A stretch of DNA of 64,000 bases from contig CAZVEG010000001.1 in the NCBI GenBank assembly GCA_964625625.1, forward strand, positions 29,657-93,656, given 5' to 3'. The notes beneath the pieces were generated by a model, which did not search any database, was not told the DNA's origin, and saw only the letters and a list, made by a program, of their open reading frames with translations. Positions 1-9,740 of this stretch are shown here, piece by piece. The stretch is from an uncultured Leptospirales bacterium. Lineage in GTDB: Bacteria > Spirochaetota > UBA4802 > UBA5368. The number at the start of each line of letters is the position of its first letter. Position 1 is the first letter of the stretch. A program made the translations under genes and the position numbers.

Positions 1-729
1 CATGACTTCCAGATTCTTTCGGCCGGGGAGGCGTTCAACAGGTGCGATATCGCCTATATTATCGGGCTCGAGGCGCGCGGACTCTCTCCCAACGCGCGTC
101 GGTACATTGAAAGCGGTAAGGTGGAGTTGACCGAATGGACCAACGCCACCCTGTCGTGGAGGCTCAAGGCCGCGGCGATGGGGCTCTCGTTCATTCCCGC
201 GCGCAACATAATGGGCACGGACACCTTCAGGTACAGCGGGGCCAAAGAGATTCTCTGTCCGTTTACGGGGCAGAAATACGCGGCCTTTCCCGCCCTGTAT
301 CCCGATTTCGCGGCGATCCATGTGCACGAGTGCGACATCTACGGTAACTGCCACGTTTACGGCGCTTCGGTATCGGACCAGGACCTGGCCAAGGCGGCCA
401 AGCGGGTGGTGATAACCACCGAGCGGCTGGTGTCCACCGAGACGATCCGGCAGCGTCCGGAGGCCACCTTCATCCCCTTCTGGTGCGTCGACGCGGTCAT
501 CGAATCGCCGTACGGAAGCTATCCCGGCAACATGCCCTACGAGTATTTCTCGGACGAGGAGCATATCAGGGAGTGGCTCGCCGCGGAAAAGGAACCCGAA
601 TCGCTGAAGAGGTTCATGGACAAGTACATATACGGTACGAAGAACTTCGGTGAATACCTGGCGCTCTGCGGCGGAATTGAAAAGATGAACAAGCTCCGCC
701 GCATCGAGCTTCTGATCGACAAAAAGTAG
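1..729 (+). CDS. CoA-transferase subunit A (glutaconate/3-oxoacid CoA-transferase family I, alpha subunit), 5' end outside window
   Basis: Frame 1 is open from base 1 with no stop and joins the ORF listed at 121..729. The C-terminal half aligns with GctA-type sequences (..CVDAVIESPYGSYPGN..EYL..). It is followed after 9 nt by the beta subunit. Confidence 0.75.
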   Translation, partial: HDFQILSAGEAFNRCDIAYIIGLEARGLSPNARRYIESGKVELTEWTNATLSWRLKAAAMGLSFIPARNIMGTDTFRYSGAKEILCPFTGQKYAAFPALYPDFAAIHVHECDIYGNCHVYGASVSDQDLAKAAKRVVITTERLVSTETIRQRPEATFIPFWCVDAVIESPYGSYPGNMPYEYFSDEEHIREWLAAEKEPESLKRFMDKYIYGTKNFGEYLALCGGIEKMNKLRRIELLIDKK

Positions 730-738
730 GAGGACGAA

Positions 739-1509
739 ATGGCGGACTACAATCCCATGGAGCTTATGATCTGCGTCTCGGCGCGGAACCTGGAGGACGG
801 CGCGACGGTCGTGGTGGGGACGGGCGCGCCCTGCGCGGCGGCAATGCTCGCCCAGAAGACGCATTCCCCGAACCTGTGCATAATGTTCGAGGCGGGCGGC
901 GTGGCCCCCATCCTTCCCTCGATGCCCATATCGGTCGGCGATTCGCGGACGTTTCATCGTGCGATCATGGCGAGCTCGATGCCCGAGATAATGGAGACCT
1001 GCCAGCGCGGCATGGTGGATTACACCTTCCTCGGCGGCGCGCAGATCGACATGTACGGCAACATCAACTCGACGATGATTGGAAGCGACCACGCGAAGCC
1101 GAAGGTGCGCTTCCCCGGATCGGGGGGAGCCAACGACCTGGCGTCGCTATGCTGGCGCACGATGATGATGACGGTCCAGGATGCGAAGCGTTTCACCGAC
1201 AAAATAAATTTTATAACTTCTCCGGGCTATCTGCAGGGCGGAAACTCCCGGTACGAGGCGGGACTGCCGAAGGGCACGGGGCCGTACAGGATAATCACCA
1301 ACATGGCGATCATGGGTTTCGACCAGGAATCGAAATGGATGAAGGTGCTTTCGATCAATCCGGGCTATTCGCGCAAGGACGTGCAGGACAACTGCGGTTT
1401 CGAGCTGAAGTGGGCCGACAGCATAGCGGACACCGATCCCCCTACCGCGGACGAGCTCAGGATATTGCGCGAGGAGGTCGATCCGCACCGGTATATTATC
1501 GGACGGTAG
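739..1509 (+). CDS. CoA-transferase subunit B (GctB-like beta subunit)
   Basis: 256 aa with family-I CoA-transferase beta-subunit features (GTGAPCAAAM..SGGANDLAS). It is tightly coupled to subunit A. Confidence 0.75.
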   Translation: MADYNPMELMICVSARNLEDGATVVVGTGAPCAAAMLAQKTHSPNLCIMFEAGGVAPILPSMPISVGDSRTFHRAIMASSMPEIMETCQRGMVDYTFLGGAQIDMYGNINSTMIGSDHAKPKVRFPGSGGANDLASLCWRTMMMTVQDAKRFTDKINFITSPGYLQGGNSRYEAGLPKGTGPYRIITNMAIMGFDQESKWMKVLSINPGYSRKDVQDNCGFELKWADSIADTDPPTADELRILREEVDPHRYIIGR

Positions 1510-1599
1510 TACAGGGAGAGCGTCTTCCGGGCGCGGGATGGTTCGCGCGTGGAACAGTACCGGCGAGCGGCCGGAATCGACAGGATGGAGGGAATAATA

Positions 1600-2064
1600 A
1601 TGGCGGATGTATTCAAGGGCATCGAACCCATGGTGTATAAAAGCAGGATAAGCGTTCCCTATCACTGGTGGGCGGGAGAGACGGCGTCGAGGTTCCTGGT
1701 GGCGCTCCGTGACGAACAGAAGATTATGGGCACCAGATGCGCGGCATGCAACAAAACCTATCTCCCTCCGAGGAAAAACTGTCCGTCATGCTTCGGGGCT
1801 TCGATGCAATGGGTGGAGCTCTCCCCCGAGGGCAGTGTTGTGACCTTCACGGTGGCGCGCAGGCAACTGGCCTCCATCCCACGAAAGGTGCCCGTCATCT
1901 TCGCGCTGATAAAACTGGATGGGGCGGACACCGCGATGCTGCATTACCTGGACGGGGTGGATCCGGGGAAGGTAAAAATCGGCATGAGGGTGAAAGCGAA
2001 ATTTTCGACGGACCGCGGGGCGAGGATGCAGGATATCGACTGTTTCGTTCCGAAGGCCGAATAG
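1600..2064 (+). CDS. DUF35 OB-fold / Zn-ribbon protein (BbsA / ChsH2-C-terminal-like thiolase partner)
   Basis: Cys4 zinc ribbon CAACNKTYLPPRKNCPSCF followed by an OB-fold region. The ORF table starts it at 1549; I prefer the ATG at 1600 (MADVFKG). A thiolase-like gene follows 9 nt downstream. Confidence 0.7.
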   Translation: MADVFKGIEPMVYKSRISVPYHWWAGETASRFLVALRDEQKIMGTRCAACNKTYLPPRKNCPSCFGASMQWVELSPEGSVVTFTVARRQLASIPRKVPVIFALIKLDGADTAMLHYLDGVDPGKVKIGMRVKAKFSTDRGARMQDIDCFVPKAE

Positions 2065-2073
2065 GGAGGGGCC

Positions 2074-8831: not shown

Positions 8832-9269
8832 ATGGCGATCGATACAAAATTCATCGGGAAGACATGGCCGGACATCTCCTACGACGTCTGCAAGGAGAAG
8901 ATACGGGAATACGCGAAGGCCATAAAGAACCCGGACCCGCACTTCGTCGACGAGGAATTCGCCAAAAAATCGAAATACGGATGCATCATCGCACCGCCGA
9001 CCTTCTGCGTGGTTTTCGGCGGGGCGCTGATCGAACCGATTTTCTTCGACAACGAGTTGAACCTCAATCTCATGATGCTGGTCCACGGTGAACAGGAATT
9101 CGAGTTTTTCGAGGTTGTGAAGGACAGGGACACCATCACCAGCACGGCGAAAATAACGGACATCGTCAACAAGGAGAAGCTGGACGTGCTGACGGTCGAG
9201 GTGCTCAGCAAAAACCAGCACGGACGAAACGTTTGCAGGGGAATCTACACTTTCGTGGTAAGGAAATAG
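8832..9269 (+). CDS. hotdog-fold protein, MaoC-dehydratase N-terminal-like (ChsH1-like half)
   Basis: 145 aa, predicted hotdog fold, immediately upstream of a MaoC hydratase with a 2-nt gap. This split arrangement resembles heteromeric ChsH1/ChsH2. Confidence 0.6.
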   Translation: MAIDTKFIGKTWPDISYDVCKEKIREYAKAIKNPDPHFVDEEFAKKSKYGCIIAPPTFCVVFGGALIEPIFFDNELNLNLMMLVHGEQEFEFFEVVKDRDTITSTAKITDIVNKEKLDVLTVEVLSKNQHGRNVCRGIYTFVVRK

Positions 9270-9271
9270 CC

Positions 9272-9664
9272 ATGGCGGATAAAATAACGACGGGGACGAC
9301 GTTCCAGGCGCAGGAAGTCGTCGACAAGTATCGCGCCATCTATTACGCGGGCGCGTCGGGGGATTTCAACCCGATACACATCGACCCGGAATTCGGCAGG
9401 ATGGTCGGGCTTGGAGGGGTCATCCTCCACGGACTGTGCGCGCTCGGTTTCGTCGCGAAAAGCGTGACCGACTGGGCCGGCGATCCAGGCAGGCTGAAGA
9501 AGCTGAAATGCAGGTTCGCGACGCCGGTGCACATAGAGGACACCATCACCGTTGCCGGCGAGGTACTCGACGTTTCCGGCGGGAGAGCGACGGTCAGCCT
9601 CAGGGTGACCAGGCAGAACGGCGACGAGGTCGAGAAAAACGTTATGGCCGAGGTCGAGGTATAG
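9272..9664 (+). CDS. MaoC-like (R)-specific enoyl-CoA hydratase (ChsH2-like half)
   Basis: Hydratase-2 motif region YRAIYYAGASGDFNPIHIDPEFGRMVGLGGVILHG. Start taken at the ATG at 9272 directly after the upstream stop. Confidence 0.8.
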   Translation: MADKITTGTTFQAQEVVDKYRAIYYAGASGDFNPIHIDPEFGRMVGLGGVILHGLCALGFVAKSVTDWAGDPGRLKKLKCRFATPVHIEDTITVAGEVLDVSGGRATVSLRVTRQNGDEVEKNVMAEVEV

Positions 9665-9695
9665 AGGGTGCGCGTGAGGCGAGGTTGGAACATCC

Positions 9696-9730
9696 ATATC
9701 CCCCTGTAAAACGCAGGGGGATATTTGTTG
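9696..9730 (+). terminator. rho-independent terminator or attenuator hairpin
   Basis: ATATCCCCCTG-taaaacg-CAGGGGGATAT, an 11-bp stem followed by TTGTTG. Confidence 0.55.
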
Positions 9731-9740
9731 CTGGAGGCAT

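Follow-up and report, generated by a model that had tools for sequence, protein, structure and literature searches.

The locus described here fills positions 1-9735 of the window, by which we mean the whole 64,000-nt stretch of contig CAZVEG010000001.1 from an uncultured Leptospirales bacterium that was analysed, and it centres on two adjacent SCP-x-type thiolase-like proteins, T1 and T2, which are flanked by two free-standing DUF35 proteins and followed by two acyl-CoA dehydrogenases (ACADs) and a two-subunit hydratase. The kind of system that these genes evoke, a DUF35-scaffolded lyase of the SCP-x fold that lacks the nucleophilic Cys and is found with an ACAD and a MaoC hydratase, is already known; this particular family is uncharacterised, and no paper describing the cluster was found in the literature searched (on the themes DUF35/BKACE, syntrophs/Desulfosarcina, Kce and anaerobic phytol). 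Our main proposal, to which we give an even chance, is that T1 and T2 form a Cys-independent C-C lyase acting after the ACADs and the hydratase.

According to published mutagenesis and structures, in the aldolase state of the SCP-x fold the nucleophilic Cys is lost (it is replaced by Gly in Sal) and a Tyr base occupies the first position of the motif that corresponds to HDCF or HDAF, this motif being YDHF in Ltp2, YDCY in Sal and YDCF in TbSLP (PMC12329534). In the KstR regulon of Mycobacterium tuberculosis (Mtb), the gene order is Rv3521-ltp4-ltp3, with fadD19 and echA19 nearby (PMC6429209, PMC1995591), and reviews as well as transcriptome papers, with reference to Wilbrink et al. 2012, present Ltp3-Ltp4 as a heteromeric aldol-lyase, which would act once the phytosterol side chain has been desaturated, carboxylated and hydrated and take off its C24 branch. 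DUF35 complexes with thiolase-fold partners that are catalytically dead are also known (PMC12960953).

The original prediction, made from the sequence alone, had placed a tight co-directional cluster of ten genes at 1-9735. Its location and orientation were upheld by checks of open reading frames (ORFs) and Pfam domains, but the genes number 12, all on the + strand and separated by gaps of 2-90 nt, and the left edge of the window truncates the operon inside CoA-transferase A. All the domain calls were reproduced by Pfam, that of a PPM-phosphatase-like protein only marginally (27.1 bits against a cut-off of 25) until AlphaFold2 and Foldseek bore it out. The features are as follows.

1..729, + strand: 3' part (242 codons) of CoA-transferase subunit A (Pfam CoA_trans, E 2.4e-18; 1poi_A)
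739..1509, + strand: CoA-transferase subunit B, glutaconate type (1poi_B, E 6.4e-45; Glu51)
1600..2064, + strand: DUF35a, free-standing Zn ribbon and OB fold (Pfam zf-ChsH2 and OB_ChsH2_C; CAACNKTYLPPRKNCPSC)
2074..3219, + strand: T1, SCP-x-type thiolase-like protein, Ltp4-type subunit (Pfam Thiolase_C_1, E 3.8e-40)
3230..4390, + strand: T2, SCP-x-type thiolase-like protein, Ltp3-type subunit (Pfam; best NCBIfam match PRK08313, 357 bits)
4401..4865, + strand: DUF35b, second free-standing Zn ribbon and OB fold (Pfam; CPKCGKVYIPPRGVCGPC)
4877..5743, + strand: stand-alone PPM/PP2C-fold protein (Pfam SpoIIE, 27.1 bits; AlphaFold2 and Foldseek)
5809..6417, + strand: TetR regulator, FadR/YsiA type (Pfam TetR_N, TetR_C_6 and TetR_C_4)
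6455..7603, + strand: ACAD1, full-length acyl-CoA dehydrogenase without the canonical Glu (5ol2_C, E 3.3e-104)
7649..8821, + strand: ACAD2, canonical acyl-CoA dehydrogenase, Glu370 (5ol2_C, E 2e-102; SCAD, 1.7e-96)
8832..9269, + strand: N-hotdog subunit, non-catalytic, HadA/HadC type (Pfam FAS1_DH_region, E 2.1e-28)
9272..9664, + strand: MaoC (R)-hydratase subunit, catalytic, HadB type (Pfam MaoC_dehydratas, E 3.2e-26)
9696..9724, + strand: terminator-like hairpin with a 12-bp stem, 3' end of the operon

Active sites of T1 and T2

That the two thiolase-like proteins would be non-canonical had been anticipated, and their active sites leave little of a thiolase. In structure alignments the nucleophile loop of T1 reads V-E81-G-D83-G in place of xxCxSG, with either a deletion or a Glu at the Cys site depending on the alignment, while that of T2 reads TTGGTTG, with Gly85 at the Cys site. 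The position of HDCF or HDAF is occupied by YDAF in T1 and YQPY in T2, and the His of the GHP motif is kept in T1 (His327) and lost in T2, where the motif has become CNP (Asn331). These states are essentially invariant among 80 T1 and 75 T2 orthologues: TTGGTTG, Y282-Q-P-Y285-S and N331-PIGATG do not vary in T2, so that Gly85 and Tyr282 are found in 75/75, and Tyr278 of T1 is found in 75 of the 80. T2 hence carries both aldolase hallmarks, Gly for Cys and Tyr for the His of HDCF, and on its residues would be the likelier catalytic subunit of the pair. Because Cys is absent from T1 and T2 as well as from the paralogues T1' and T2' described below, the cluster is predicted to encode no functional thiolase.

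These residues bear most directly on the idea that the cluster performs ordinary β-oxidation, T1/T2 and DUF35 making up a genuine, BbsAB-like thiolase and 3-hydroxyacyl-CoA dehydrogenase (HADH) being supplied from elsewhere in the genome, which we find scarcely credible. It is true that T1 and T2 share the thiolase fold and find their closest PDB structures among true thiolases and BbsB (for T1, thiolases at E 1e-44, BbsB at 1.6e-40 and Ltp2, 6ok1, at 9e-28; for T2, 4yzo at 8e-41, SCP2-thiolase at 8e-40 and Ltp2 at 7e-31); the ACADs are ordinary, and one Smithellaceae locus has a canonical thiolase close to the cluster. However, neither subunit has a nucleophilic Cys, here or in 75-80 orthologues; both have exchanged the His of HDCF, T2 has also given up the GHP His, and all four paralogues are Cys-less. 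BbsAB, which had been offered as a model, shares with the locus a free-standing DUF35 subunit and an SCP-x-type subunit in an anaerobe (hence the T1 match to BbsB just given), but BbsB is a true Cys thiolase with HDAF and T1/T2 have neither feature, so the model was given up and an ordinary or BbsAB-like thiolase rejected on the active-site residues.

The same positions can be read in another way, namely that the Cys-less pair is a decarboxylase or other enolate-forming enzyme (like KS-Q/CLF, or like TbSLP with its weak malonyl-CoA decarboxylase activity), or else an inert scaffold or lipid-binding core organising the BKACE, SCP2 or ligase proteins, in which case the substrate could be an alkylmalonyl-, alkylsuccinyl- or 3-alkylglutaryl-CoA. 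We consider this unlikely, though worth keeping in view. The oxyanion-hole His, kept in T1, and the Asn that is invariant in T2 are residue types of decarboxylating condensing enzymes, the CoA-transferase is of the glutaconate (dicarboxylate) type, the core sits beside AMP ligases in the alkane/aromatic degraders Desulfosarcina alkanivorans and D. widdelii and in Smithella, and the dead thiolase-fold partners of DUF35 mentioned above set a precedent for a scaffold. Nevertheless, the absolute invariance of the T2 motifs equivalent to an active site is hard to square with a scaffold, the Tyr-for-His exchange is a specific aldolase signature, and the ACAD and (R)-hydratase genes immediately downstream would provide an aldolase with its substrate.

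As for the enzymes that T1 and T2 would resemble as a C-C lyase, the second catalytic residue of Sal (Cys304) is Ala in T1 and Pro in T2, and about 50 residues past the motif stand His327 in T1 and Asn331 in T2, not Tyr or Gln (Ltp2 has Tyr344). The proteobacterial bile-acid aldolase/hydratase Sal-Shy has Gly at the nucleophile site, Tyr first in xDCx and a DUF35 partner, as here, but in addition to the essential Cys304 it differs in that Sal is a homodimer and its DUF35 is fused to MaoC and carries a C3H ribbon. The igr system (ChsE1-ChsE2, ChsH1-ChsH2 and Ltp2) offers the same succession from ACAD through a heteromeric MaoC hydratase to a Cys-less SCP-x-fold aldolase on DUF35, with no HADH step and with Tyr at the His position of HDCF. 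In contrast to igr, the ACADs of the locus are not of the α2β2 FadE28/29 type, DUF35 is not fused to the hydratase, which is itself nearer to HadAB than to ChsH1/ChsH2, the aldolase-like part is a heteromeric pair, and neither the His of YDHF nor Tyr344 of Ltp2 is conserved in T1/T2. The notion that each catalytic step is heteromeric in the manner of igr is supported for the hotdog pair, the Cys-less thiolases and the Cys4 DUF35 proteins, and not for the ACAD pair; an igr-like logic running from ACAD to (R)-hydratase to retro-aldol cleavage is plausible on the gene complement.

DUF35 partners and the Ltp3/Ltp4-type module

DUF35a and DUF35b, 38% identical to each other, both contain the two Pfam domains zf-ChsH2 and OB_ChsH2_C above threshold. 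As had been claimed, they are free-standing, duplicated and equipped with a Cys4 ribbon, the pattern CxxC-x10-CxxC being found in all orthologues of more than 50% identity (79/79 for DUF35a and 69/69 for DUF35b).

A tblastn search of plasmids with T2 retrieved 40%-identical actinobacterial proteins, always annotated as 'thiolase domain-containing protein (x2)'. In Tsukamurella and Streptomyces clavuligerus, these loci encode an AMP ligase, an OB-fold protein of 309-339 residues and two thiolase-like proteins of 354-359 and 388-390 residues, the small one being PRK07937 'lipid-transfer protein' (550-593 bits) and the large one PRK08313 (713-734 bits). When the subunits are aligned (alignment A1), T2 has in common with the large ones the Cys-to-Gly exchange, Y-x-P-x-S and N-P-I-G-A, and T1 has in common with the small ones V-E-x-D. 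The OB-fold protein is a tandem DUF35, each half of which aligns to DUF35a and DUF35b with 31-39% identity. The genes of these loci follow the order of Rv3521-ltp4-ltp3. The closest known analogue of the locus is this actinobacterial module of tandem DUF35, Ltp4-type and Ltp3-type proteins, not igr or BbsAB. Compared with Rv3521/Ltp4/Ltp3, the locus likewise has two adjacent, different SCP-x-type proteins, two DUF35 modules and an AMP ligase and crotonase nearby, but identity is only 30-40% and T1/T2 fall under the family cut-offs, DUF35 is split into two genes flanking the pair rather than joined in one tandem protein, each DUF35 protein carries a Cys4 ribbon, which is missing from the N-terminal half of the actinobacterial protein, and the hosts are anaerobes with no steroid context, whose cluster also includes a HadAB-like hydratase, two ACADs and a PPM-fold gene.

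Could the cluster then be orthologous in the strict sense to igr or ltp3/ltp4, the machinery for steroid side chains, its host degrading sterols anaerobically? The architecture parallels Rv3521-ltp4-ltp3, the logic parallels igr, and there are weak NCBIfam matches to EchA19-like and steroid-CoA-ligase-like families below cut-off. Yet the scores lie far under the cut-offs (T2 against PRK08313, 357 bits where 514 are required; T1 against PRK07937, 180 where 419 are required), no protein of the cluster reaching a curated NCBIfam cut-off, and the window contains no steroid ring-degradation genes or KstR-type context. None of the carriers (Smithella, Syntrophales, Desulfobacterales and uncultured Spirochaetota) is known as a steroid degrader, and we judge this orthology highly improbable.

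A DUF35 scaffold for two different thiolase-fold proteins is also the design of archaeal ACAT/HMGS/DUF35, PhlACB and MucABC, in which some subunits have lost canonical residues. All structurally characterised complexes with two thiolase-fold proteins and DUF35 are biosynthetic, which raises the prospect that the locus encodes a C-C-forming complex (aldol or Claisen) making a branched lipid or ketone. This is very unlikely: those complexes pair an HMGS/KAS-III-like subunit with an ACAT-like one and retain the catalytic Cys in their ACAT/PhlC subunit, whereas here both subunits are ACAT/SCP-x-like and Cys-less, and they keep catabolic company (two ACADs, a CoA-transferase, a CoA ligase for fatty acids and a FadR-like repressor), with no polyketide synthase, non-ribosomal peptide synthetase or HMGS genes linked.

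Dehydrogenases and hydratase

The ACAD pair had been likened to FadE28/FadE29. ACAD1 and ACAD2 are full three-domain enzymes, 43% identical to each other, and the best PDB match of both is Bcd (5ol2_C, at 3.3e-104 and 2e-102, respectively), then SCAD and IVD. With the nearest relatives homotetrameric and no ChsE-type chain among the best 60 PDB matches of either protein, a FadE28/29-like heteromeric ACAD was rejected on similarity ranking; the two may still assemble into an ACAD1:ACAD2 heteromer. In ACAD2 the catalytic Glu370 is invariant (39 orthologues). ACAD1 has GGG in place of the usual catalytic Glu, and both this GGG and the motif W-D244-R-S are invariant (42 orthologues); from the alignment with Bcd and the IVD sequence, we take Asp244 to stand where IVD has its catalytic base, Glu254. 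The ACADs therefore look like two specificities, one of them suiting 3-substituted or bulky chains, rather than an igr-type α2β2 enzyme.

For the hotdog pair, the proposal of a heterodimer was strengthened. The N-hotdog protein matches 4rv2_A (4.4e-13), HadC (5zy8_A, 7.3e-10) and HadA (2e-8) and the MaoC protein matches HadB (5zy8_B, 9.9e-15), 4rv2_B and the ChsH chains 4w78_B and 4wnb_B (1.7e-10), so that the two cover both chains of the HadAB, HadBC and MSMEG_1340/1341 heterodimers; subunit by subunit they correspond to the HadA/HadB type and, less closely, to ChsH1/ChsH2. In MaoC, the hydratase-2 residues Asp31 and His36 do not vary among orthologues. A heterodimeric (R)-hydratase is well supported by these matches, and its closest counterparts, mycobacterial HadAB and HadBC, show the same division into a non-catalytic N-hotdog and a catalytic MaoC subunit with the hydratase-2 Asp and His, although HadAB serves ACP-bound meromycolate biosynthesis and the genes here belong to a catabolic operon for CoA esters.

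Upstream genes and a second Cys-less pair

A metagenomic contig (L001) that is 99.8% identical to the window (25 mismatches in 13,219 nt) supplies 5 kb of upstream sequence. The full CoA-transferase A has 336 residues and starts 281 nt upstream of the window (L001:4720-5730); beyond it, from the window edge outwards, lie a FadD11-like long-chain AMP-forming CoA ligase, a crotonase, a DUF35-BKACE fusion and the C-terminus of a further DUF35 protein. The CoA ligase that was to be looked for upstream is accordingly present. In line with the original prediction that the window holds no HADH, neither an SDR or HADH nor a canonical thiolase was found by Pfam among the window ORFs scanned or in these 5 kb. 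The NCBIfam matches of crotonase and ligase to EchA19-like and steroid-CoA-ligase-like families are the weak, sub-threshold ones noted above. As called, the crotonase (L001:2112-2822, 236 aa) aligns with enoyl-CoA hydratase profiles only from about position 23-25 onwards and is preceded by 134 nt of apparently non-coding sequence; its true start is probably an alternative start codon upstream.

The DUF35-BKACE fusion (474 aa, L001:554-1978) lies about 3.0-4.4 kb upstream of window position 1 and has a relative at L044:5979-7421, with a BKACE domain scoring 316 bits. Its ribbon is CxxC-x10-CxxD (Cys3Asp) in most relatives and Cys4 in this lineage, and no paper joining DUF35 with BKACE or DUF849 was found in the literature searched. 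Of the further DUF35 protein, L001 contains the C-terminal part (2-544); in L044 (4792-5982) it is an SCP2-SCP2-DUF35 fusion of 396 aa. Directly before it, as seen in relatives, is a second thiolase-like pair, T1'/T2' (L044:2418-4781), in which the motif states are SDHA and Asn for T1' and Gly, YDPA and Asn for T2', so that all four thiolase-like paralogues of the extended cluster are without the nucleophilic Cys. T1' is closest to T1 and T2' to T2, which implies that the pair was duplicated as a unit and in turn argues for an obligate heteromer of T1-type and T2-type subunits; in every locus long enough to contain both, the T1 and T2 genes are adjacent.

A third thiolase-like pair with a DUF35-like ORF occurs directly after the MaoC gene in a Leptospirales metagenome-assembled genome (MAG; L009:15098-17822), and the stretch aligned to the nucleophile loop contains no Cys-containing active-site motif in either protein.

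CoA-transferase, regulator and PPM-fold protein

CoA-transferase A finds its best PDB match in the glutaconate CoA-transferase GctA (1poi_A, E 6.2e-34), and in CoA-transferase B the segment IMFEAGG aligns with IIVESGL of GctB, the catalytic Glu51 being invariant in 37 orthologues. AibAB (a decarboxylase) and IpdAB (a hydrolase) match the pair less well than GctAB, and with Glu invariant a function like either of them is unlikely. The TetR protein matches Bacillus FadR (3whb, E 6.5e-16, and 1vi0) and resembles regulators of the FadR/YsiA type, which suggests that it senses acyl-CoA.

The PPM-like protein is modelled by AlphaFold2 at a pLDDT of 93.2, and Foldseek matches the model to Stp1, PstP, tPphA and SpoIIE (E 1e-9 to 1e-6, probability 1.00, target-normalised TM at most 0.73), the top PDB matches all being PP2C phosphatases; on the model, the PP2C fold can be assigned with confidence. 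Six Asp residues are invariant (D34, D49, D121, D171, D221 and D222). The family has 118 relatives in 5.8 billion proteins, mostly 'hypothetical protein', and in the loci examined is found only beside this module, its gene directly following DUF35b. Of the neighbours scanned, none beside it was recognised as a kinase or partner-switching gene. The window also encodes, at 37040-39259, a 739-aa protein with a SpoIIE/PP2C domain (142 bits) and C-terminal TPR repeats, to which the PPM-like family shows no profile similarity in hhalign (probability 1.9%); on the strand opposite to that SpoIIE/TPR gene, at 43269-45275, is a CHASE2 adenylate/guanylate cyclase.

Distribution, probable horizontal transfer and host

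Scanning one genome per species gave 80 loci, over which 17 cluster proteins were mapped by tblastn. The complete order, found in Spirochaetota/Leptospirales MAGs and in Smithella/Syntrophales, reads T1'-T2'-SCP2·DUF35-DUF35·BKACE-(ECH)-ligase-(CoA-transferase A-CoA-transferase B) in its upstream part and DUF35a-T1-T2-DUF35b-PPM-TetR-ACAD1-ACAD2-HadA-like-HadB-like in its downstream part. A core of ligase-DUF35a-T1-T2-DUF35b-PPM is found in Desulfobacterales, including the cultured Desulfosarcina widdelii PP31 and D. alkanivorans PL12. The cluster is not a chance arrangement, since dozens of genomes belonging to three phyla or orders share its gene order. On the chromosome of D. widdelii PP31 (L064, 1699444-1720586), the core is divergent from a second AMP ligase, an SDR and a crotonase and is followed by ferredoxin-domain proteins, a DUF6989 protein and a nitroreductase-like protein, partners that differ from those in the spirochaete cluster.

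When all unassigned ORFs of 85 loci were clustered for recurrent neighbours, no HADH, carboxylase, aldehyde dehydrogenase or true thiolase recurred, and spot scans of the flanks with Pfam found lineage-specific neighbours only.

T2 is 79-91% identical in all related loci but one, and between Spirochaetota and Smithellaceae/Syntrophales the identity of T2 and of CoA-transferase B is 83-93%. The ArgRS of the window (45422-47095) is 62-70% identical to its named relatives, which are all Spirochaetota MAGs but for one 'bacterium', and places the host among uncultured Spirochaetota. Since the identity of the cluster across phyla is far above that of ArgRS within Spirochaetota, it implies that the cluster has moved horizontally between phyla.

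The anaerobe hallmarks that had been pointed out in this genome are present as genes for rubrerythrin, desulfoferrodoxin and a flavodiiron protein, and the host appears to be an anaerobe that defends itself against oxygen. They lie in an oxygen-defence island on the - strand (10690-17454), with a CitMHS/ArsB-type transporter, rubrerythrin, desulfoferrodoxin, cytochrome bd subunits II and I and a flavodiiron (ROO-type) protein; cytochrome bd beside detoxification genes of anaerobe type suggests tolerance of low oxygen rather than strict anaerobiosis. Between terminator and island, on the strand of the operon, is a Hist_deacetyl gene (9744-10688; histone-deacetylase/acetoin-utilisation type, HDAC-like) that does not accompany the cluster in other loci. 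Housekeeping and oxygen defence make up the remainder of the window, including glycine cleavage, Opp transport and ArgRS, and three ORFs (40980-43292, 770 aa; 53664-54860, 398 aa; 47224-47961, 245 aa) have no Pfam match at E <= 1e-4.

Set against the known systems, what differs here is the split DUF35 genes, the linked PPM-fold gene and the ordinary ACADs, one with a relocated catalytic base, as well as, in the full cluster, a second pair with BKACE- and SCP2-fused DUF35, the anaerobe hosts and the evidence of horizontal transfer.

A proposed pathway

From the gene content, residue states, conservation and structural analogies observed above, we infer every reaction of the following scheme. 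Activation of the acid would fall to the upstream FadD11-like ligase, which is AMP-forming, or to the GctAB-type CoA-transferase, and the acyl-CoA would be desaturated by ACAD1, whose IVD-like base would suit a 3-substituted chain, or by the canonical ACAD2. The enoyl product would be hydrated by the HadA/HadB-like heterodimeric (R)-hydratase, and the resulting 3-hydroxyacyl-CoA would be split by retro-aldol chemistry instead of oxidation and thiolysis, the enzyme being a heteromer of T1 and T2, each docked to one free-standing DUF35 protein. The products would be acetyl-CoA or propionyl-CoA and a ketone, aldehyde or β-keto acid, and the T1'/T2' complex would tether the BKACE and SCP2 lipid-binding domains through the fused DUF35. 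More speculatively, BKACE could convert the β-keto acid and acetyl-CoA to a shortened acyl-CoA and acetoacetate, which the GctAB-type transferase could re-activate.

Such a retro-aldol route would account for the consistent absence of HADH and thiolase. The cues for a long-chain lipid are the FadR-like TetR, the FadD11-like ligase and the SCP2 domains, and our confidence stands at the midpoint that the operon shortens or de-branches a bulky, probably β-substituted long-chain acyl-CoA without thiolysis; we are just as evenly divided on whether the part in the window is the downstream two-thirds of a lipid-catabolic operon of about 20 kb under the FadR-like TetR. A β-branched lipid as the substrate is a tentative suggestion. 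The IVD-like ACAD1 would fit it, because a tertiary 3-hydroxy group on a β-branched chain cannot be oxidised, and a β-keto acid as the aldol product (as proposed for Ltp3/Ltp4) would, together with acetyl-CoA, match both substrates of BKACE. Propionate dismutation through C6 as in Smithella was set aside as a function, with no mutase linked and the lipid cues pointing elsewhere.

Several points weigh against a Cys-independent lyase and the pathway built on it. Neither T1 nor T2 has the His and second Tyr of Ltp2 or the Cys304 of Sal. By E-value both are nearer to true thiolases than to Ltp2, so that the loss of Cys would be an independent or ancient event; T1 and T2 are probably like Ltp2 and Sal in mode of action without belonging to the clade of either. 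For T1, AlphaFold2 with a shallow alignment gave a model too poor for use (pLDDT 58.9). No aldehyde dehydrogenase or carboxylase that might handle the carbonyl product is linked in the 85 loci, both ACADs look ordinary, HADH and thiolase could lie elsewhere in the genome, and the canonical thiolase of the one Smithellaceae locus is only 2 kb downstream. The aldol-lyase role of Ltp3/Ltp4 is itself a genetic inference, and we tentatively equate PRK08313 and PRK07937 with Ltp3 and Ltp4 by size, order, neighbourhood and the Mtb protein lengths, not through the Mtb sequences.

A more specific version of the scheme, which we hold to be decidedly unlikely, is that the Cys-less aldol-lyase splits a tertiary 3-hydroxyacyl-CoA into acetyl-CoA and a β-keto acid or ketone, whereupon the BKACE, tethered by its DUF35 to the paralogous complex next to the SCP2 domains, takes up the two products and yields a shortened acyl-CoA and acetoacetate. 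If true, the thioester would be conserved without ATP cost, and the missing enzymology would be supplied for the anaerobic breakdown of isoprenoid lipids, such as the phytol and phytanyl chains of chlorophyll and archaeal membranes, and of similar β-alkyl lipids, with neither a thiolase nor a 3-hydroxyacyl-CoA dehydrogenase needed.

Significance

How strict anaerobes break down β-branched or bulky lipids, such as isoprenoid acids, branched sterol side chains and the products of hydrocarbon activation, is poorly understood at the enzyme level. The cluster described here is abundant in metagenomes, where its proteins are annotated only as 'thiolase family protein' or 'acetyl-CoA C-acetyltransferase', and because its core is present in the cultured D. 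widdelii PP31 and D. alkanivorans PL12 its function is experimentally testable. If T1 and T2 are indeed a C-C lyase, those annotations would be wrong for a large protein family, its chemistry being Cys-independent, the principle of the DUF35-scaffolded aldolase would extend to anaerobes, beyond the aerobic steroid degraders, and the genetically inferred Ltp3/Ltp4 aldol-lyase would gain a tractable and simpler relative.

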